Assembly: GCF_006345805.1 (NCBI RefSeq)
Contig: NW_021835262.1
Coordinates: 1 to 42,394 of the forward strand
DNA length: 42,394 nt
Reading direction: 5' to 3'
Source of the DNA: Octopus sinensis
Taxonomy: Eukaryota
The notes beneath the pieces are model-generated. The model ran no database searches. It was not told the DNA's origin and worked only from the letters and a program-made list of their open reading frames with translations. Shown here piece by piece: positions 6,886 to 41,085 of the stretch. A program made the position numbers and the translations under genes. How positions within the stretch are numbered: position 1 is the stretch's first letter; each line of letters begins with the position of its first letter.

Positions 6886-7261
6886 ATCTTCTCCATCCCA
6901 AATCATTATATCACGTCTTTTGTGCTTACGTTTTATTGGTTTTCACTAGGACTCCACCAGTACTTTTTTTTTATTACGACTGGCTATGGCTTCCACCGTA
7001 CTGTATATGTGTATGTATGTATGTATGTTGGTATATGCACAATGCAGTGTGAATTACAAAGCTAATATTAATTTACAGCTTTCAAGTCTTTCACTGAGGC
7101 ACTTTCAACAGCTGAGAATGCAGGGTGGGCCAAAAGTCACGCACAAGATGAGTTCAATACGCTCTGGAACTGTCAAAGGCATGCTTCAGTTTTTCTAAAA
7201 CTGCATAAAATAAATAAAATGATGATGAATACACATATGATGAGCAAAATGATTAATAATA

Positions 7262-7580
7262 ATCATTTCTACGATAGGGTTAGGGTCTGAAATTTGGTGG
7301 GATGGGGCCATTCGATTAGATTGACTCCCAGTGCGCAACTGGTACTTAATTTATCGACCCCGAAAGGATGGAAACCAAAGTCGTCTCCGGTGGAAGTTGA
7401 ACTCAGAATGTAGTGGCAGACAAAATACCTATTTTTATTTCTTTACTACCCAGAAGGGGCTAAACACAGAGAGGACCCCAGTGCGTAATTGGTACTTATT
7501 TAATCGACTCCGAAAGGATGAAAAGGCAAAGTCGACGGAATTTGAACTCAGAACGTAATGGCAGATAAAATACCGCCAAG
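7262..7580 (-). mobile_element. Nin-domain SINE fragments
   Basis: Reverse complement of GCCTTTCATCCTTTCGGGGTCGATAAATTAAGTACCAG, a Nin-like central domain. Confidence 0.7.
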
Positions 7581-16559: not shown

Positions 16560-17090
16560 AACCAGACTCTTAGCACTTAAATAATTCTTCAACTTTCACT
16601 GCTCGTGACCCCTCTCTGCCTAAGTACACTTTCCCTTCTCCAGTCAGTCCTGCAGCACTCTAACGTTGTAGCCATGGGTAGCAAGTTGGGCCCCAGTTAT
16701 GCCAACCTTTTTGAAATTATATGGTTATTATACAGTGAATTGTATCGGTGCCATATTACTCGCTAGGGATGAACTCTGTCTTTATTTTTTGCATCAATAA
16801 CTTCCTGTCGTGGTATTTACTTCTGCCTTCTAAGACACTTCTCTTCAATTTGCTCCAACATCACCGTCTCTAGCGATGATAGCCCTTACATTTTCACATC
16901 AATGCATTATAAACCCACTGATTAACTCTCAACCTTCACGTTTATCCTTTCTCACACACTCTCTCTCACTCTTTCTCTCTTTCTCTATCTCTTCTTCTCT
17001 CTTTCTTTCTTCCTCCTCTCTCCATCTAATCTATTCAGAACTATTAGAAAATATCTCTCTGAGGAAGAGTTCGGTTTGAAACATCACATA
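16560..17090 (+). mobile_element. Old, internally deleted PLE remnant with a terminal hammerhead-like motif
   Basis: GTAGCCATGGGTAGCAAGTTGGGCCCCAGTTATGCCAACCTTTTT translates as VAMGSKLGPSYANLF; CTGAGGAAGAGTTCGGTTTGAAACATCA at ~17059-17086. Confidence 0.65.
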
Positions 17091-17690
17091 TTCCTTCTTC
17101 GCCACTCCACTGCTAAATGATTTATATTCACTAATGACACAGACAATCACTAGAATCTACCCCCGCCTCAGCTTCTTTTGTTTACTTTATTAAACAGAAA
17201 AATGTTTATTGACAAATATGTCCTGAATGAACCAAAACTGTTAAGGAAATTGATAAACAGAAAATCGAACAAACGCATTGACAACAATAGGCATGGAATT
17301 AACTACACACGCATATACATAAATACATAAATACATAAATACACACACATATATATTTTTTGTGGTCCACTTACAAATATCACTAAATCAAACACTGTTA
17401 AATCCACATACTCACGCACACACACACGCATACACACACACACACACACTCACACATACGCATCCACATACGCCATCACACACACATACATATACAGACA
17501 CATACTCGATCATCATACATCTCGAAAACACATGCACAACCACATTCACCACATATGCGACCACTCTCTCTCTCCCCCACACACACATAGACATCGCACA
17601 CACACACGCACACACATAGACATCGCATACACACACATAGACATCGCATACACACGCACAGACATCGCATACACACACACATAGACATCG

Positions 17691-18644: not shown

Positions 18645-19380
18645 ACAATTTGAACTCAGAACGTAAAGACGGACGAAATGCCGGTAAGCATTTTTGTCCG
18701 GTGTGCTAACGATTCTTTTCTACTCTAGGCACCTGGCCCGAAGTTTTTAGGTAGTGGGGGGGGGGGAGCAGTCGATTAGATCGACTCCAGCGCGCATCTG
18801 GTATGGTACTTAGTTAATCGACCCCAAACGGATGAAAGGGAAAGTCAACCGTGGCAGAATTTGAACTCAGAACGTAATGGCAGACGAAATACTGCTAAGC
18901 ATTTCGCCCGGCGTGCTAACCGTTCCTGCCGGTTCGCCGCCTTCGCTTATTAATGATCCTTTCTGCTATAGGCACAAGGCCTGAAATTTGTGGAGAGGGG
19001 GCTAGTCGATTAGATCGACCCTAGTACACAACGGATGCTTAATTTATCGACTCCGAACATGAAAGGCAAAGTCAACATCGGCGGAATTTGAACTCAGAAC
19101 GTAATGACAGACAATATTACTGCTAAGCATCTCGCTCGGCGTGATAACGTTTCCTATTTCTTTATTTCCCACAAGGGGCTAAACACGGAGGGGACAAACA
19201 AGGACAGACAGACGGATTAAGTCGATTTTTCCAGGAAGACAAACTGGTACTTAATTTATCGACCTCGAAAGGATGAAAGGCAAAGTCGACCTCGGCGGTA
19301 TTTGAACTCAGAGCGTAATGACAGACGATATACTGCTAAGCATTTCGCCCGGCTAACGTTTCAGCCAGCTCGCCACCTTA
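18645..19380 (-). mobile_element. Concatenated Nin-domain SINE units
   Basis: Repeated GGATGAAAGGCAAAGTCGACC..GAATTTGAACTCAGAACGTAA modules. Confidence 0.75.
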
Positions 19381-20790: not shown

Positions 20791-21257
20791 GTGTGTTTAT
20801 GTATGTTCTTGTGCGTATTGATGTTCGTGTCTGTGTATGTGTGCACTTATGATATGTCCTTGTATGTATTGATATATGTGTATGTGTGAATGAACTTATG
20901 AATGTGAGCGCATAATTACGTACGTGTGAGTGTGTGTGTGTGTGTGTGTTGTGTGTGTGTGTGCGTGTGTGCGTGTGTGTATGAATGCAGGACTTGTTTG
21001 TGTATGTACGTACGCTACGTAGGTGTGGGCTTTCCACTATGTGTGTTTAGAATGGATGCGTGTGAGCTTGTTTGAGCCTCTGTGATAACATGCGTGTGAT
21101 GACTTCAAATTCCGCTGAGGTCGATTCTGTCTTTCATCCATTTCGGGGTTGATAAAATAAGAACCATTTGAGCACTGGGGGTCGATGTAATCGACTTGGC
21201 ACCCTCTTTCAAACTTGTTAGCCTTGTGCCAAAATTTGGAAGCAATAATATATGTGT

Positions 21258-21292
<35 letters not shown>

Positions 21293-21295
<3 letters not shown>

Positions 21296-21959
21296 GGCGG
21301 CGAGCTGGCAGAAATGTTAGCACGCCGGGCGAAATGCCTAGCGGTATTTCGTCTGCCGTTACGTTCTGAGTTCAAATTCCCCTTTTGGGGTCGATAAATT
21401 AAGTACCAGTGACGCACTAGGGTCGATATAATCGACTTAATCCGTTTGTCTGTCCTTGTTTGTCCTCTCTGTGTTTAGCCTTTTGTGTGCAATAAAGAAA
21501 TAAGAAACGTTTGCACGCCGGGCGAAATGTTTGGCAGTATTTCAACTGTCTATTTCAACTGGGTAGTAAAGAAATAGGTATTTCGTCTGCCGTTACCTTC
21601 TGAGTTCAAATTCCGCCGGGGTCGACTTTGCCTTTCATCCTTTCGGGGTCGATTAAATAAGTACCAGTTACGCACTGGGTCGATGTAATCAACTTAATCT
21701 CTCTGTCTGTCCTTGTTCGCCCCCTCTATGCTTAGCCTTTTGTGTGCAATAAAGAAATAAGAAACGTTTGCACGCCGGGCGAAATGTTTGGCAGTATTTC
21801 AACTGTCTACGTTCTGAGTTCAAATTTCGCCGAGGCTGACTTTGCCTTTCATCTTTTCGAGGTCGATAAATTAAGTACCAGTTGCGTACTGGGGTCTATC
21901 TAACCGACTGGCCCCTTCCCCCAAAATTTCGGGCCTTGTGCCTAGAGTAGAAGAGAATA

Positions 21960-22030
<71 letters not shown>

Positions 22031-22696
22031 TGTGAAGGCGGCGAGCTGGCAGAAATGTTAGCACGCCGGGCGAAATGCCTAGCGGTATTTCGTCTGCCGT
22101 TACGTTCTGAGTTCAAATTCCCCTTTTGGGGTCGATAAATAAGTACCAGTGACGCACTAGGGTCGATATAATCGACTTAATCCGTTTGTCTGTCCTTGTT
22201 TGTCCTCTCTGTGTTTAGCCTTTTGTGTGCAATAAAGAAATAAGAACGTTTGCACGCCGGGCGAAATGTTTGGCAGTATTTCAACTGTCTATTTCAACTG
22301 GGTAGTAAAGAAATAGGTATTTCGTCTGCCGTTACCTTCTGAGTTCAAATTCCGCCGGGGTCGACTTTGCCTTCATCCTTTCGGGGTCGATTAAATAAGT
22401 ACCAGTTACGCACTGGGTCGATGTAATCAACTTAATCTCTCTGTCTGTCCTTGTTCGCCCCCTCTATGCTTAGCCTTTTGTGTGCAATAAAGAAATAAGA
22501 ACGTTTGCACGCCGGGCGAAATGTTTGGCAGTATTTCAACTGTCTACGTTCTGAGTTCAAATTTCGCCGAGGCTGACTTTGCCTTTCATCTTTTCGAGGT
22601 CGATAAATTAAGTACCAGTTGCGTACTGGGGTCTATCTAACCGACTGGCCCCTTCCCCCAAAATTTCGGGCCTTGTGCCTAGAGTAGAAGAGAATA

Positions 22697-22698
<2 letters not shown>
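21293..22698 (+). repeat. Near-identical ~741-bp tandem duplication of a composite Nin-SINE, bounded by (GT)n
   Basis: GAAGGCGGCGAGCTGGCAG at 21293 and 22034; both copies end AGAAGAGAATAAT(GT)n. Confidence 0.9.
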
Positions 22699-22760
<62 letters not shown>

Positions 22761-23234
22761 AGTCTTTGTGGACCTGCAGTCTTTTCTATGGTTCCCAGTG
22801 ACACTGCATCCGTGACAACTCCGTCTATTCTGAGATATTCACAGATACATTCTCTGTTATTGTCATCTAGGTATAAAACTGCGATTATATGAGAATTAGC
22901 TGTTAATCTTAGCAGGTTATGCATCTATATAAAGATTGCATTGTTAGCTTATTTTTAGTAGTGCTTAGGGAGTTTTATTATAGTGTTGTGGAATACGAAG
23001 TGCGAGAGCCAATTAGAGAATTGCCAATAGGGCCCTTTACTCTACAAAAACTGAACATTGGTGTTTTATGTTTCGTGTAGTTAGCTAGTCTCAGGCAAAT
23101 AAGCGTTGAAGGCTTGAGGCTCCACCATCAACCACAATGATATATTGAAGACTCATATGAAAATTTCGATGCTTTATTACAAGTCAAGATAATTACTGAC
23201 ATACCGTTTCTCAATAGACCTTTCGAAAACAGAT

Positions 23235-27556: not shown

Positions 27557-27920
27557 CATACATATATATACATACACACAAACATATATGTCTATGCATG
27601 TGTGTGCATATGCGTGTATGTGAGTGAGTGTGAATGTGTCCGTATGTGTGTGTGTGCCTGTGTGTGTGTGTGTGTGTATGTGTGCGTGGTGTGCATTAGA
27701 ACTCTATGTGTTCCTTGTAAAGATGCGTCAGTGCGACGAAAAATCGAATTATTTTACGGAATAACTTGCTAACCACACTAGAATTCCGAACACTGAATGT
27801 TATCTCTCTTTCTCTCCCTCTCTCCCTACCTCACTCTTTTCTTCCTATCTCTCTCCTCTATCTCTCTCACTTCCTCTCTCTCTTTGCTTCTCTCTCATTT
27901 ATCTATCTATCTATCTATCT

Positions 27921-28925
27921 TACGGGCCAGGGCCCATGAACAACTTCCAGAGATCCCTGGCCTGGCAGTGCTACCGAGAAGCGCTACCCGTTCGGGATAA
28001 GTTCTACAGACACGGCTCGAGAAACACGGGGCCGACCTGCCCGAGATGCGGTCAGAGCGACGAAACCGTTCTGCACGCACTCGTGCAGTGTCCAACAATT
28101 TCCGACCTGTGGGCTTATGTCGAACAACTGCTGTCACGTGTGGGACGAGTCGGTTTATCAGCTGAGTCTATCGTCAATATTGTCACGCCTCCTTCCTTCA
28201 AACGGGAAGGAAGAGCTATTTTCACCATCCTTGTGGCTATGGTGAAGGAATGTATCTGGTGGACGCGTCTGAAAGGATTGGAGACAAACACTTTCCTCTC
28301 TGGTCAATCTCTCATCAACTTCTTCAAGTACCACTTGAAAAGGAAAGTGAGAGTAGAGAGGCAAGTTTTGTCTAGCGAATGTTTAAAAAAAGATGGGTGA
28401 ATGTAGCAAGGATGGCACGTATGAATGACGAAGCCACCTTGAGCATAATCCTATGAACCCAGAAATTGAAAACAGAGGGTTACCCACTTGCAAACAAATG
28501 TGGTAACATATAACAATATTGACCAAGGTTACCGTGGTCTTTTTCGTAGGCTTTTCTTCCCACGGATAAACCTTACTTGCTTTCCCCTTTACACCATATA
28601 TCATAACACTGTGATACACGATCCCTATTGATCGTTCTTTTTTTCCTCTTCCCCTTTTTTCCCCCTTTTTTCTTCTTTTTTCATTTCTCTTTTCTTTTGT
28701 TCCTTTTCCTTTTCTTTTTTTTTCTTTTTATTCTTTTCATTTTTTATTTATTTATTTATTTATTTATTTTTTTTTTGTTCTTCCCTTTTACGATCCCTCT
28801 TGATCGAAAACCTACGCCACCCCCTTTTTTTCTTTTGTTTTTTGTTTTTTTCATCTCCCAAAAGAAAAGGTCTACCTTGTAACTTGTCCCATCTGTGTGC
28901 AGCCCTGTGTGGCCAATAAAGAAAC
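27921..28925 (+). mobile_element. L1/Tx1-clade LINE 3' end (CCHC zinc finger) inserted in (ATCT)n
   Basis: ORF 27936-28400 has SLAWQCYREALPV..CPRCGQSDETVLHALVQCP..LW; T-rich UTR with AATAAA; (CTAT)n on both sides. Confidence 0.85.
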
Positions 28926-29266: not shown

Positions 29267-29724
29267 TGAAAGAAACAGACATAAACTAAAAGAGAGGGAC
29301 TATTACAAAGGGTGAGAGAGAATATGTGAGAGAGCAAGCGATATAGAGAATGTAAAAAAAGAGGGAGAAGAGAGAAATAAACAGAGAGATAAAAGGCAGA
29401 GAATCGGTTGAAAACTGCAGAAGTTTTTAGAGAAAAACCTGTGTAAGACACCGTTATTCTCGGTTTCTCGCTTTACGCGGGAGCTCTAGGCCAATAGTTA
29501 TAGTGCATAACCATCCTTGGCACATACGTAATGTGAGTGTAAAGTTTGGTGAAAATCGGTTGAAAACTGTAAAAATGCATAGCTACTACACACACACACA
29601 CACACATGCACACAGACACACACACACACGCGCGCGCGCAGAATTCTTTGTTTTATATAGTTATATATACATGTACGCACGCGCACGAACACACAGATGC
29701 GCGCGCGCGCACACACACACACAC

Positions 29725-30670
29725 AAGGAACCAAGGTGATTGTAAGTATCTGATGGAATTTTCCTACCCCCAACAAAAATAACCCAAAATCACAGGCTTT
29801 TGTAATTTCGAGGAGGAAAATCCCTTTGGGGGCCTGAATTCAGACTTGTTTAACTTTACAGAATTCCTCTCGGAGGCTTTGTATATTTGTGTGTGTGTGT
29901 GTGTGTGTGTGTGTCTGTGTGTGTGTGTGCGTCTGTGTGTCCGTGTGCGTGTGTGTGTGTCCGTATGCGTGTGTGTGTGTGTATAGCACAAGGTCAGAAG
30001 GTTTTTTATATATTCTTCGCAGAATGATCTTATCGTTCGGATTTTCTGGATTTTCATTTACACAGATACTTGACATCACACTACTTCGTAATTGATAACC
30101 TCGTGGACTGATAGCCGTGTCCGAAGAGGTGCTTACAGAGGTAACTGCACAGTTCTCTGAATCCATATTTCATACTACACCACACACACACACAAGGAAC
30201 CAGGTGATTGTAAGTATCTGATGGAATTTTCCTACCCCCAACAAAAATAACCCAAAATCACAGGCTTTTGTAATTTCGAGGAGGAAAATCCCTTTGGGGG
30301 CCTGAATTCAGACTTGTTTAACTTTACAGAATTCCTCTCGGAGGCTTTGTATATTTGTGTGTGTGTGTGTGTGGTGTGTGTGTGTCTGTGTGTGTGTGTG
30401 CGTCTGTGTGTCCGTGTGCGTGTGTGTGTGTCCGTATGCGTGTGTGTGTGTGTATAGCACAAGGTCAGAAGGTTTTTTATATATTCTTCGCAGAATGATC
30501 TTATCGTTCGGATTTTCTGGATTTTCATTTACACAGATACTTGACATCACACTACTTCGTAATTGATAACCTCGTGGACTGATAGCCGTGTCCGAAGAGG
30601 TGCTTACAGAGGTAACTGCACAGTTCTCTGAATCCATATTTCATACTACACCACACACACACACACACAC
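29725..30670. repeat. Near-identical ~470-bp tandem duplication bounded by (CA)n
   Basis: AAGGAACCA(A)GGTGATTGTAAG at ~29725 and ~30194; the same ORFs are duplicated in the track. Confidence 0.9.
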
Positions 30671-33159: not shown

Positions 33160-34570
33160 CATTCAAATTCTGCCGAGGTCGACTTTGCCTTTCATCCCTT
33201 GGGGGGAGGGGGGTCGATGAAATGAGTAACAGTGAAACAATTGGGTCGATGTAATCAACTTAACCCCTCCCCCAAATTTCAGGCCTTAAAGGATTATTAC
33301 AGATTACATTAAGGCGGCGAGCTGGCAGAAACGTTAGCACGCTGGGCGAAATGCGTAGCCGTATTTCGTCTGCCGTTACGTTCTGAGTTCAAATTCCGTC
33401 GAGGTCGACTTGCCTTTCATCCTTTCGGGGTCGATAAATTAAGTACCAGTTACGCACTGTGGTCGATGTAATCGACTTGATCCGTTTGTCTGTTCTTGTT
33501 TCTCCTCTCTGTGTTTAGCTCCTTGTGGGTAGTAACGAAATAGGTATTTTGTCTGCCGCTACGTTCTGAGTTCAAATTCCGCCGAGGTCGACTTTGCCTT
33601 TCATCCTTTCGGGGTCGATTAAATAAGTACCAGTTACGCACTGGGGTCGATATAATCGAATTAATCCGTTTGTCTGTCCTTGTTTGTCCTCTCTGTGTTT
33701 AGCCCCTTGTGGGTAGTAAAGAAGTAGGTATTATGTTCTGAGTTCAAATTCCGCCGAGGTCGACTTTGCCTTTCATCCTTTCGGGGTCTATAAGTTAAGT
33801 AGCAGTCGCGCTCTGGGGTCGATCTAATCGACTGGCTCCCTCCCCAAAAATTTCGAGCCTTGTGCCTAGAGTAGAAAATATTTTTAAGGCGTTGAGCTGG
33901 CAGAAACGTTAGCATGCCGGGCGAAATGCTTTGAGATATTTCGTCTGTCTTTACGTTGCGAGTTCAAATTCCGCGAAGGTCGACTTTGACTTTCATCCTT
34001 TCAGGGTCGATAAATTAAGTACCAGTCGCGCACTGAGGTCGATGTAATCGACTTAATCCCTTTGTCTGTCCTAGCTTGTCCCCTCTATGTTTATCCCCCT
34101 GTGGGCAATAAAGATATAAATATAGGTTACAAAAAGGAAGTGGGCTGGCAAAAATCGTTCACTCACCAGACGAAAAGGTTTACATTCGTCCATCTTTACA
34201 TTCTGAATCAAAATTCTGTCGAGATCGACTTTACCTTTGATTCTTTTGGGGTCGATGAAGTAAGTACCAGCTGAGCAATAGGGTAGGTGTAATCGACAAC
34301 CCCTTCCCACAAATTGCAGGCCTTGTACCTAAAGTAGAATGAATTATTAGAGGTTAGAAACATAAGGTGCTGACAGTATCGTTTGAACGTCGGAGAAAAT
34401 ATCTCTCTTCCTGCTGTCTAGGTTCAGAGTTCAAGTCCCGCCGAGATCAACTATACCTTCCATCTCCCCGTGTTCGATAAAATGAAGTACCAGCCAAGCA
34501 CTAAGGTCAATGGCATCGACTAAATTTCTCACCTCAAAATTACTAGCCTCGTGCCCAAAGTGGATACTCG
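33160..34570 (+). mobile_element. Cluster of concatenated Nin-domain SINEs
   Basis: About seven copies of TTCAAATTCCGCCGAGGTCGACTTTGCCTTTCATCCTTTCGGGGTCGAT..AGTACCAG. Confidence 0.8.
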
Positions 34571-35706: not shown

Positions 35707-36839
35707 CAGTGAATGGCAATGAAGGTCCAGTAGCGTAGATGAAGAATCAAAGGAGTCCATCGGTAATAAATGTATGGGAAACACTGATTTAATGCTTAGT
35801 ACTTTTAATTTTTTCTTTCTTTCCTTACTTGTTTTATTTTGATTAAATTAGTATTTTTTTCATATATTTATTGTTTTCACTCATTAAGTTTTTGCCTTGG
35901 TTATTTTTCAACGGAGAGCCAAAGATTGGAGGTTTTTTTTGCTTATTTTTTAACAGAAGACAAATTGAATTGATATTATTCATTGAATTAATTTACTCTT
36001 TAAATAACAAAATTAATGTTAAATTAAATAGCTTTTACAATAAAAAAAATTATACATTTATTAATGTAAGAAAATAAAGATGACCGAAATATTGAATAAC
36101 TCACACCGCATTTAAACAGGGCTTTTATCTATTTGAAATTGAATGGTCTTATTTTATTGAGTCCTTTACTATGCTTAACACTCAGAAATATTCTCGTTTC
36201 TTTGACGAAATCTTTATTCCTACATGTCACATACAGACATGCAACCATAAACACACATACATGCAAACGCATAATACATTCCTACGAGAAAACTGAGTTT
36301 CATCATGATAAGAAGGATGGTGATGTTGAGGTGGAGATTGTAGTAATGATAATGAAGATGGTGACGGCGACAACGATGGCGACGATAACATGACGGTATT
36401 TATGAGCATTATACTGATGATGATGGCCATGAAAATGATATGATGGTGATGATGGTGATAATGAGGGTGATGGTGATGATGATGGTGGTGGCGGTGATGG
36501 AGATAATCCCTATGATGATGATAATGGTGCTGGTGTTAATGAAGACGAGGAAATAAACAGAGAATAAATAAAAGACTTGTGGATTTAGCGGTCGAATTTA
36601 GAACATTTATAAATGTCCTAAAATCTTCACAGCCTTGGCTTTTTTTTTATTTCATACTGAAAAACATTCATATATTCACGTGCCGATATATGACCCACGT
36701 TGGACCCCTTATTCGCATAATACGCCCTGAACTTAACTATGGTCTATCCATAGCACTTACTCAGCATTACCTGACACCTTTGGGTCTTACTGACACCATT
36801 ACCTCCCATAGCCTATATATATATAAATATATATATATT

Positions 36840-36884
<45 letters not shown>

Positions 36885-37141
36885 TTTAACAATTAAGGAT
36901 AATCTCTTAATAAGGGATCTTAACAAGAAATTATCGGGTAGCTAGCGTGAAAACCTCGTAAAAGAAAAGAATTCGAAAATAATTTTTTTCTTTTGAACAA
37001 ATTAATTATATCTATATTGTATAGAGGGCATTATTACACATAAATGCCTCACACTAGGAGGGACAAAGTCATTACTACCAAAATTATACTATCATACCCA
37101 ATGCAGTTTTTTCAAAGCAAGACATTTAAAAAAATGAATTT

Positions 37142-37200
37142 AGTTCTGTATCACCGTGATTTCACATTCAACTTTACGTCTAATGATCGTCAGCAGAACT
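37142..37200 (-). ncRNA. Type I hammerhead ribozyme (unit 1, motif intact)
   Basis: AGTTCTG-CTGACGA-TCATTAGACGTAAAGTTGAATGT-GAAA-TCACGGTGA-TA-CAGAACT; helix I 7 bp, cleavage triplet AUA. Confidence 0.82.
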
Positions 37201-37616
37201 GATTCTGATACATCATAAATAAACTACCAACCTTACGTAGCGAAGACAAACAGACAATGCTCACTCCGGCAAGCACATGGAATGTTTATAAATCAATATA
37301 CCCGTAAATGGCGGCTTTTTTTACGAACTGCATGTCGGTTAATGAAAAGTATTTCGAATAAGTTTAACAATTAAGGATAATCTCTTAATAAGGGATCTTA
37401 ACAAGAAATTATCGGGTAGCTAGCGTGAAAACCTCGTAAAAAAAGAATTCGAAAATAATTTTTTTCTTTTGAACAAATTAATTATATCTTATTGTATAGA
37501 GGGCATTATTACACATAAATGCCTCACACTAGGAGGGACAAGTCATTACTACCAATTATACCTAATCATACCCAAATGCAGTTTTTTCAAAGCAAGACAT
37601 TTAAAAAACTGAATTT

Positions 37617-37672
37617 AGTTCTGTATCACCGTGATTTCACATCACTTTACGTCTAATGATCGTCAGCAGACT
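37617..37672 (-). ncRNA. Hammerhead copy, unit 2 (small deletions)
   Basis: Core intact; single-base deletions in helices I and II. Confidence 0.6.
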
Positions 37673-38094
37673 GATTCTGAATACATCATAAATAAACTAC
37701 CAACCTTACGTAGCGAAGACAAACGACAACTGCTCACTCCGGCCAAGCACATGGAATTTTTATAAATCATATATCCGGTAAATGGCGGGCTTTTTTACGA
37801 ACTGCATGTCGGGTAATGAAAAGTATTTCGGAATAAGTTTAACAATTAAGGATAATCTCTTAATAAGGGATCTTAACAAGAAATTATCGGGTAGCTAGCG
37901 TGAAAACCTCGTAAAAGAAAAGAATTCGAAAATAATTTTTTTCTTTTGAACAAATTAATTATATCTATATTGGAAGAGGGCATTATTACACATAAATGCC
38001 TCACACTAGGAGGGACAAAGTCATACTACCAAAATTATACTAATCATACCCAAATGCAGTTTTTTCAAAGCAAGACATTTAAAAAACTGAATTT

Positions 38095-38152
38095 AGTTCT
38101 GTATCACCTGATTTCACATTCAACTTTACGTCTAATGATCGTCAGCAGAACT
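38095..38152 (-). ncRNA. Hammerhead copy, unit 3
   Basis: Core intact; one-base deletion in helix III. Confidence 0.65.
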
Positions 38153-38573
38153 GATTCTGATACATCATAAATAAACTACCAACCTTACGTAGCGAAGACA
38201 AACAGACAACTGCTCACTCCGGCCAAGCACATGGAATGTTTATAAATCATATATCCGGTAAATGGCGGGCTTTTTTACGAACTGCATGTCGGGTAATGAA
38301 AAGTATTTCGGAATAAGTTTAACAATTAAGGATAATCTCTTAATAAGGGATCTTAACAAGAAATTATCGGGTAGCTAGCTTGAAAACCTCGTAAAAGAAA
38401 AGAATCGAAAATAATTTTTTTCTTTTGAACAAATTAATTATATCTATATTGTATAGAGGGCATATTACACATAAATGCCTCACACTAGGAGGGACAAGTC
38501 ATTACTACCAAAATTATACTAATCATACCCAAATGCAGTTTTTTCAAAGCAAGACATTTAAAAAACTGAATTT

Positions 38574-38631
38574 AGTTCTGTATCACCGTGATTTCCATTC
38601 AACTTTACGTCTAATGATCGTCAGCAGAACT
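38574..38631 (-). ncRNA. Hammerhead copy, unit 4
   Basis: One-base deletion just before GAAA. Confidence 0.6.
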
Positions 38632-39044
38632 GATTCTGAATACATCATAATAACTACCAACCTTACGTAGCGAAGACAAACAGACAACTGCTCACTCCGG
38701 CCAAGCACATGAATGTTTATAAATCATATATCCGGTAAATGGCGGGCTTTTTTACGAACTGCATGTCGGGTAATGAAAAGTTTTCGGAATAAGTTTAACA
38801 ATTAAGGATAATCTCTTAATAGGGATCTTAACAAGAAATTATCGGGTAGCTAGCGTGAAAACCTCGTAAAGAGAAATTCGAAAATAATTTTTTTCTTTTA
38901 ACAAATAATTATATCTATATTGTATAGAGGGCATTATTACACATAAATGCCTCACACTAGGAGGGACAAAGTCATACTACCAAAATTATACTAATCATAC
39001 CCAATGCAGTTTTTTCAAAGCAAGACATTTAAAAAACTGAATTT

Positions 39045-39101
39045 AGTTCTGTATCACCGTGATTTCACATTCAACTTTACGTCTATTGATCGTCCAGAAC
39101 T
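39045..39101 (-). ncRNA. Hammerhead copy, unit 5 (core damaged)
   Basis: The CT of CTGACGA is missing. Confidence 0.45.
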
Positions 39102-39522
39102 GATTCTGAATACATCATAAATAAACTACCAACCTTACGTAGCGAAGACAAACAGACAACTGCTCACTCCGGCCAAGCACATGGAATGTTTATAAATCAT
39201 ATATCCGGTAAATGGCGGGCTTTTTTACGAACTGCATGTCGGGTAAGAAAAGTATTTCGGAATAAGTTTAACATTAAGGATAATCTCTTAATAAGGGATC
39301 TTAACAAGAAATTATCGGGTAGCTAGCGTGAAAACCTCGTAAAAGAAAAGAATTCGAAAATAATTTTTTTCTTTTGAACAAATTAATTATATCTATAGTG
39401 TATAGAGGCATTATTACACATAAATGCCTCACACTAGGAGGGACAAAGTCATTACTACCAAAATTATACTAATCATACCCAAATGCAGTTTTTTCAAAGA
39501 AGACATTTAAAAAACTGAATTT

Positions 39523-39578
39523 AGTTCTGATCACCGGGTTTCACATTCAACTTACGTCTAATGATCGTCAGCAGAACT
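39523..39578 (-). ncRNA. Hammerhead copy, unit 6 (helix III and cleavage site altered)
   Basis: CTGACGA intact; indels and substitutions near the cleavage site. Confidence 0.5.
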
Positions 39579-39839
39579 GATTCTGAATACATCATAAATA
39601 AACTACCAACCTTACGTAGCGAAGACAAACAGACAACTGCTCACTCCGGCCAAGCAATGGAATGTTTATAAATCATATATCCGTAAATGGCGGGCTTTTT
39701 TACGAACTGCATGTCGGGTATGAAAAGTATTTCGGAATAAGTTTAACAATAAGATAATCTCTTAATAAGGGATCTTAACAAGAAATTATCGGGTAGCTAG
39801 CGTGAACCTCGTAAAAGAAAAGAATTCGAAAATAATTTA

Positions 39840-40178
39840 CGACATGCAGTTCGTAAAAAAAGCCCGCCATTTACCGGATATATATGATTTATAAACATTC
39901 CATGTGCTTGGCCGGAGTGAGCATTGTCTGTTTTTGTCTTCGCTACGTAAGGTTGGTAGTTTTATTTATGATGTTTCAGAATCAGTTCTGCTGACGATCA
40001 TTAGACGTAAAGTTGAATGTGAAATCACGGTGATACAGAACTAAATTCATTTTTTTAAATTCTTGCTTTGAAAAAACTGCATTTGGGTATGATTAGTATA
40101 ATTTTGGTAGTAATGACTTTGTCCCTCCTATGTGAGGCATTTATGTGTAATAATGCCCTCTATACAATAGATATATAA
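39840..40178 (+). repeat. Inverted partial copy (~340 bp) of the array unit
   Basis: CGACATGCAGTTCGTAAAAAAAGCCCGCC.. is the reverse complement of the unit; ends in (TA)n. Confidence 0.95.
39984..40042 (+). ncRNA. Type I hammerhead ribozyme in the inverted copy (motif intact)
   Basis: CTGACGA at 39991-39997, GAAA at 40021-40024; predicted cleavage after A40035. Confidence 0.82.
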
Positions 40179-40189
40179 TATATATATAT

Positions 40190-40226
<37 letters not shown>

Positions 40227-40251
40227 TTGTGGGTGTGTGTGTGTGGTGTTA

Positions 40252-41085
40252 TTAGCTGACGCACCCGGTAATTCCCGGGAAAGCCGGGCTTATCCCTTGG
40301 TTCTGTTGTTTCGGTAATCCAATAACAACATTACAAAGCATGTAGCCCTTAAAATGGTATTTTCTTTTGCAGAGAATACCGAATACACAGGATCTTGCTT
40401 TTATGAATACCCAAATTTTGAAGTCATTTATGTAATAACATGAATTTAGTTACTCGATAGTAAAAATTCAAATAAAGTAGTCCCGAAAAGGGCTTTAATG
40501 CGTTCCCAGAGTATATAGAACTTAGGAGGAAATACCAATACGGTATGTATACTAAAATCGTGAAGCATATTATTTAATAACAGGTTAATCAGATATGAGA
40601 TAATAACAATTCAAAGTAAATAAGTCTAAAAAGAGCTTTTGTGCATTCCCAGAGAATATTATCCTCATCGACGCTAGTGTTGGTATATTCGTGAATAAGT
40701 CACTAACCGAAATAAGTGGATCTATTGTTTAGGAAAATACTATTTACTTGTTTAAGCGTTGTATTGGATAAATTGCGAAAATAACTCAAATAGTTCAAAT
40801 ATTAAGAAATGAGCATACTCAATTTGATTTATATCAAATGATTTAGGAAAATGAATGGGTTATTTCCCTTGGCTGTTAAAATGAAATATATTAGATATAA
40901 ATAAGGATCCTTTCCAGGGGCCCTATTATCGATTTTTCAACAATCTGAGTGTGCCATGAGGTTTCCAGACATGAGTTCTATTCACGTGTCAAGTTACATC
41001 AACATCGATAAAACGATGTAGGAGGAGTTAGCTAACAACTTCACCAGCAAACCCACTGATAGAGTTTCCCACATGTAGCAGAAGA
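40252..41085 (-). mobile_element. Non-autonomous Helitron-like element
   Basis: Minus strand: 5' A|TC, 3' hairpin CCCGG gaatta CCGGG, then CTAA|T. Confidence 0.5.

Follow-up and report, generated by a model that had tools for sequence, protein, structure and literature searches.

A tandem array with a hammerhead motif in Octopus sinensis that ends in an inverted partial unit within a (TA)n tract

Organization of the array and its target site

The stretch of DNA analysed here (the window) comprises 42,394 bases of Octopus sinensis contig NW_021835262.1 and contains a tandem array at 36880–39838, made up of six full units and 102 bp of a seventh (~6.2 units in forward orientation). The full units are 473–480 bp long with a majority consensus of 484 nt, to which the unit positions given below refer, and the seven units start at 36880, 37358, 37833, 38313, 38789, 39262 and 39737. 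There are no further copies of the unit elsewhere in the 42,394-base window. The features of the locus are as follows, with the units assigned to the strand that carries their hammerhead motif (the ribozyme strand).

36814–36882, no strand: left (TA)n target tract, overlapping unit position 1 by 3 nt (ATA) and interrupted by AA(TA)5TT at 36826
36880–37357, minus strand: unit 1, the 3'-most on the ribozyme strand; its hammerhead matches the consensus, with the core at 37193 and the predicted cut after 37149
37358–39736, minus strand: units 2–6, head to tail, with hammerhead cores at 37666, 38145, 38624 and 39571; the core of unit 5 is broken as assembled
39386–39716, plus strand: part of unit 6, the predicted pairing partner of the inverted arm in read-through transcripts
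39737–39838, minus strand: truncated unit 7, consensus positions 1–106
39839, no strand: inversion junction, a single A
39840–40179, plus strand: partial unit in inverted orientation, running from consensus 463 to 138 (to 126 if the flank overlap is included)
39984–40042, plus strand: hammerhead motif of the inverted arm, with the core CUGACGA at 39991 and the predicted cut after 40035
40167–40249, no strand: right flank, (TA)n then (TG)n, with a 7-nt exact overlap with unit positions 126–132 and AA(TA)5TT at 40177

The inverted copy spans 328 bp unambiguously, from 39840 (consensus 463) to 40167 (consensus 138), and 340 bp if its overlap with the (TA)n flank is counted, which takes it to 40179 (consensus 126). 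An alignment with unit 3 covers 343 columns at 95% identity (E 2e-146), and the copy carries a type I hammerhead motif that matches the unit consensus. The two arms form an imperfect palindrome with a 123-nt spacer (39717–39839) between them. A preliminary description of this DNA proposed that the array ends in an inversion and that this lies at the 5' end relative to the ribozyme strand; the map bears out both points, with the 102 bp of unit 7 leading through the A at 39839 into the inverted copy of 328–340 bp.

The array and inverted arm are bordered by (TA)n tracts on both sides. The sequences outside these tracts are unrelated (the only matches between the flanks are of 20 and 11 nt), and the joined flanks constitute a (TA)n(TG)n site, of which there are three further examples in the window. 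We found no clean target-site duplication at the array flanks; the AA(TA)5TT motif present in both is a weak candidate for a long one, because n is 5 in three of the eight AA(TA)nTT motifs of the window. Non-LTR retrozymes with such a duplication have one of more than 4 bp.

Several other repeats are present in the window. Immediately after the (TG)n, at 40250–40300, there is a GC-rich stretch with short inverted repeats that may be the end of another, perhaps Helitron-like, transposon. At 29712–30665 there is a direct duplication of a 471-bp unit with no mismatches and four gap positions, which is either very young or an assembly duplication. A tandem duplication at 21100–22770 (~92% identity over 963 columns) contains a repeat that recurs at 7250–7580, 18650–19380 and 33160–34350 and is presumably SINE-like.

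The six full units have 59 differences from their consensus, a rate of ~2%, and since 46 of these are deletions the underlying assembly consensus appears to be thin, leaving some chance that a chimeric read is involved. The edge units have a distinct difference profile, with an enrichment for insertions (6 of 20 events, versus 1 of 32 inside; p 0.01) that polishing or mixed reads could cause. The first 211 positions of unit 1 (36880–37090) have no differences, versus 3–7 (mean 4.4) in each other unit (P ~0.012), and this may mark polishing anchored in the unique flank. An artefact of a low-accuracy assembly could account for the junction, be it a misjoin between two loci or a read that is chimeric or folded back. 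A simple fold-back is improbable: the read would mirror back through the array, yet the arm stops after ~340 bp and enters unrelated flank. An artefact also sits poorly with the 123-nt spacer, with flanks that are both (TA)n and jointly make up a (TA)n(TG)n site of the recurrent kind, and with the position of the right outer end, which coincides with the unit's most (TA)n-like tract (top-ranked with all five of the window sizes tried). We therefore regard an artefactual junction as rather unlikely.

The hammerhead motif and the repeat unit

Along the ribozyme strand the motif begins with a 7-bp helix I and CUGACGA, continues through helix II, GAAA and a short palindromic helix III, and closes with an AUA site and the helix I partner, which places the predicted cut at approximately unit position 269/270. 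Helix II opens with a U-U opposition at its base, as does that of the axolotl HHR_Amex2, whose cleavage is reported to be weak in the monomer and stronger in the dimer (PMC7229834; this and the other papers are cited from partial texts). A strict type I hammerhead descriptor has four matches in the whole window, one in the inverted arm (plus strand) and one each in units 1, 3 and 4 (minus strand), so that three of the six full units pass it (only units 3 and 4 among units 2–6). The descriptor gives no matches in 30 random windows, and none of 5000 random unit-like sequences scores equally strongly. Retrozymes are classed as active in bioRxiv 10.64898/2026.07.22.740005 when two consecutive units have complete hammerheads. 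Units 3 and 4 adjoin each other, and in both of them the motif lacks 1 nt, which may be a sequence error. With a looser scan the core is present in five of the six units, unit 5 being the exception.

Rfam Hammerhead_1 is the top match to the motif, at 14.4 bits versus a gathering score of 34 (E 0.59). There are no Rfam matches at gathering level over the whole window, and an E-value scan of the 1.1 kb at 39200–40300 gives 16 sub-threshold matches, with no hammerhead among them. Matches to microRNA models at the junction were dismissed, as they reflect the inverted repeat. At -9.0 kcal/mol, the fold with the hammerhead is less stable by 1.2 kcal/mol than the minimum-energy fold of the local sequence, and local folding of the hammerhead region is no better than that of shuffles in four array segments (z -0.48 to 0.53). 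The inversion had been described as carrying an intact hammerhead, and this stands at the sequence level, where the strict descriptor is matched, although the Rfam score is sub-threshold. Given that score and the ordinary local folding, the array hammerheads are best considered putative ribozymes. Eight of nine predicted Xenopus retrozyme dimers are reported to lack in vitro cleavage (bioRxiv 10.64898/2026.07.22.740005), and 235 Hammerhead_1 loci are reported in the giant squid (PMC6962438).

The unit has a GC content of 33%, below the 50% that is a retrozyme trait, and none of the 28 reading frames of at least 120 aa in the window lies in the array. As a circular monomer the ribozyme strand is predicted to fold at -121.8 kcal/mol, versus -89.6 +/- 5.4 kcal/mol for shuffles (z -6.0), with 68% of its bases paired and none of 100 shuffles as stable; the corresponding values for the opposite strand are -92.7 versus -76.6 +/- 5.9 kcal/mol. 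Neither a strict Pol III A box nor a B box is present on the ribozyme strand, which has only two loose GTTC matches. The low GC content, the lack of a long frame, the type I hammerhead and the stable predicted circle together fit a non-LTR retrozyme, and the array has the appearance of a genuine insertion, in a (TA)n tract, of such a non-autonomous element.

A transcript crossing the junction is predicted to form 321–326 long-range pairs whichever strand is transcribed, and the predicted fold of 39380–40180 has an energy of -528 kcal/mol. Read-through transcripts would be expected to form a dsRNA hairpin of ~325 bp, although a long hairpin is automatic for any inverted repeat. The fold-back put forward in the preliminary description would thus follow from the geometry if read-through transcription takes place. 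Within the predicted fold-back, unit 6 pairs with the whole of the plus-strand hammerhead, and because the motif is buried in duplex in this way the occurrence of hammerheads on both strands is probably a by-product, as is the potential hairpin.

Junctions, proposed priming and the candidate integrating enzyme

Read 5' to 3', a (TA)n strand at each outer end leads into antisense sequence with respect to the ribozyme strand. On the left there is no 3' poly(A) tail, and (TA)n goes straight into unit position 1 with a 3-nt overlap; on the right the exact overlap is 7 nt long, at unit positions 126–132. Each outer end can be read as (TA)n followed by cDNA of the ribozyme strand, for which reverse transcription primed from both cut DNA ends would be the best explanation. 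The ribozyme cut (~269/270) lies away from both ends, in keeping with internal initiation, and unit positions 123–131 are predicted to be unpaired in the circle (0.8–1.0). The inner junction contains either one untemplated A without microhomology or a short overlap (2 nt plus that A) with a 2-nt deletion. Between the position at which unit 7 stops (106) and that at which the inverted arm starts (126–138) there is a gap of 19–31 nt, and the probability of such closeness by chance is 0.04–0.13. This resumption of the arm a short way beyond unit 7, at the tract of the unit that most resembles (TA)n, is reminiscent of L1 twin priming, a modest signal.

We give somewhat better than even chances to the following account of the array and its inversion. 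A (TA)n tract would be cut on both strands by a retroelement protein acting in trans, most likely from a microsatellite-targeting Penelope-like element (PLE). Reverse transcription of ribozyme-strand RNA would start from the left 3' end at unit position 1 and cover 6.2 units; from the right 3' end it would start, again on ribozyme-strand RNA, at positions 126–137, a TA-like tract predicted to be single-stranded, and cover ~0.7 unit. End-joining of the two cDNAs head to head would generate the 5' inversion and place hammerheads on both strands. The second primer may have annealed to the RNA already being copied, a little in front of the first enzyme (twin priming), or to the 3'-most unit of the RNA (a PLE-type inverted copy). 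This account draws on one locus with noisy sequence, and its likelihood and those we give for the four competing explanations are judgements.

Several properties of PLEs make them the likeliest candidates for the integrating enzyme. They favour microsatellite targets and often have an inverted 5'-truncated copy at the 5' end (PMC8557442; examples in PMC3846280), in agreement with what the preliminary description had said of inverted copies at PLE 5' ends. A purified PLE protein cuts the two strands at AT-rich DNA and extends them both, initiates internally on the RNA and accepts RNA that has not been cleaved (PMC11167929), and PLEs are the proposed mobilisers of retrozymes, to which they are tied by type I hammerheads (PMC7229834; bioRxiv 10.64898/2026.07.22.740005).

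[quoted passage not shown] Two of its frames match an 891-aa protein (pairwise E 2e-19 and 3e-31), and because Pfam gives no match to the two frames themselves, the assignment depends on this homologue, which has RVT_1 and a sub-cutoff GIY-YIG match. A CxxxxCxxC motif ahead of a C-terminal GIY-YIG suggests the Neptune type, judging by the published description (PMC8557442). At 2612 in the remnant there is a minimal hammerhead-like motif whose core deviates at one position. A comparison of the unit with one PLE end (2430–2750) reveals no significant similarity (104 of 300 shuffles are as good), and we found no inverted copy at the 5' end of this remnant, where the best match is of 10 nt. The array itself has no RT or GIY-YIG frame and does not qualify as an autonomous PLE. 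There is probably a second, more decayed PLE remnant at approximately 16600–17200 (plus strand), which by eye resembles the RT region of the first and in which a CT-rich tract is followed at 17059 by a minimal hammerhead-like core.

The proposal made earlier that a PLE integrated the array is therefore plausible in view of the (TA)n target, the type I hammerhead and the PLE in the window, but it is weakened by the lack of detected homology and by the offset between the two outer ends, which at 125–137 nt does not match PLE insertions, whose outer ends coincide or differ by a tail of 30–40 nt.

The same priming of both ends might instead have been carried out by a LINE protein, as in L1-type twin priming, in which the RNA copied first is also bound by the second primer, next to the end of the first cDNA (PMC2912911). 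The preliminary description leaves this alternative aside, although the breakpoint geometry fits it too. The resumption of the inverted arm 19–31 nt past the end of unit 7 and the microhomology at the outer junction are marks described for that process (PMC2912911, PMC11702581), and a zf-RVT LINE fragment is present in the window at 27765–28400 on the plus strand (Pfam PF13966, E 2.5e-7). Against this, there is no poly(A) tail, with the 3' end meeting (TA)n through the 3-nt overlap, and the gap is larger than the 1–10 bp of most of 32 engineered L1 inversions, 22 with deletions and 10 with duplications (PMC11702581); the link that type I hammerheads make between retrozymes and PLEs also points elsewhere. 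A LINE protein is in our judgement an unlikely agent, and we continue to favour a PLE.

A second modest signal, which points in another direction, comes from the variants in the inverted arm. Over positions 138–463 the arm has nine variants, of which three (at 257, 382 and 443) are common to unit 1 and none to units 2–6, and the branch shared by unit 1 and the arm amounts to 4.5 edits versus at most 1 for the other 20 pairs. Sharing of this extent has a probability of 0.015 when only unit 1 and the arm are considered, 0.027 when the arm is matched with any unit and ~0.07 when any two are compared. It would fit a PLE-type copy of the 3'-most unit, and equally fits either edge units that were spared homogenisation, as the ends of tandem arrays are known to be (PMC5615363), or differential polishing. 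That the arm is a true copy of the 3'-most unit is a doubtful proposition, under which a PLE dimer would have primed both strands near the 3' end of an uncleaved, heterogeneous multimeric RNA, with a 'tail' of ~125 nt separating the two start sites. A single rolling monomer circle, as in the current model, would give identical units.

The sharing can also be accommodated by a history in which insertion or growth of an ordinary seven-unit array preceded the inversion of its end, which would be due to break repair or replication template switching at the DNA level through TA microhomology. An in-place flip of unit 7 positions 126–463 with small deletions yields the same map, and the variants in common with unit 1 could be accounted for by a DNA end that invaded unit 1 or by the escape of array ends from homogenisation (PMC5615363). 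A later inversion needs a second event whose outer breakpoint happens to coincide with the boundary between element and flank, whereas priming from both ends gives that coincidence in one step, and we find a later inversion quite unlikely.

Finally, the nascent cDNA could have looped onto unit 6 and copied itself, as proposed for the Penelope palindromes of Adineta, where the layout is likewise head to head (PMC3846280), and a TAAT at unit positions 466–469 lies near the start of the inverted arm. Here the arms are separated by a 123-nt spacer with no palindrome at the junction, the junction match requires a 2-nt deletion, and the arm has none of the nine variants of unit 6 but shares three with unit 1, although the unit 6 variants may be sequence errors. 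The sharing with unit 1 gives no support to a fold-back copy of the adjacent unit 6, and we judge self-priming to be very unlikely.

Implications and relation to known elements

Retrozyme arrays and PLE 5' inversions are both already known, and the two would be expected together if retrozymes are PLE derivatives. Their combination here adds a useful mechanistic clue. Both the mover of animal retrozymes and the nature of the template, a circle or a linear multimer, are still matters of hypothesis in the available texts (PMC7229834; bioRxiv 10.64898/2026.07.22.740005). A 5' inversion of the proposed origin would record the priming of both target ends, so that a family-wide tally of junctions could separate PLE from LINE and circle from multimer, a choice that one noisy locus cannot make. 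If the arm does derive from the 3'-most unit, it would be a genomic footprint of PLEs mobilising retrozymes, and the template could be a linear multimer rather than a rolling monomer circle.

With L1 twin-priming inversions (PMC2912911, PMC11702581) the locus shares an inverted segment that continues the template just beyond the forward end, and microhomology at the outer junction with little or none at the inner one. It differs from them in the lack of poly(A) and of a discrete 12–18 bp duplication, in the gap of 19–31 nt, and in its tandem template, where phase can coincide by chance.

The resemblance to metazoan non-LTR retrozymes (PMC7229834) includes a short non-coding tandem unit with GC below 50%, one type I hammerhead per unit, a strongly self-paired predicted circle, an array of up to about seven units, and PLEs in the same genome. 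The 484-nt unit is slightly above the 150–450 bp range given in that paper and inside the 51–972 bp range of bioRxiv 10.64898/2026.07.22.740005. A terminal inversion such as the one in this array is not described for retrozymes in these partial texts, and both cleavage and circles are only predicted here. More generally, the literature searched yielded neither an inversion in a retrozyme array nor twin priming by PLEs, with the proviso that it was covered in part and that supplements might show such cases.

The PLE insertions with inverted copies described for Penelope/Poseidon, Neptune and Naiad (PMC8557442, PMC3846280, PMC11167929) differ from the array in having RT and GIY-YIG frames, an outer-end offset of 30–40 nt rather than 125–137 nt, a palindrome at the junction where the array has a 123-nt spacer, and a minimal hammerhead in place of one with a full helix III; the array also has no detected homology to the PLE in the window. 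What the array and these insertions have in common is a set of tandem units with a head-to-head, inverted and truncated copy at the 5' end, a microsatellite target, the lack of a clear target duplication, and ends that do not lie at the ribozyme cut.
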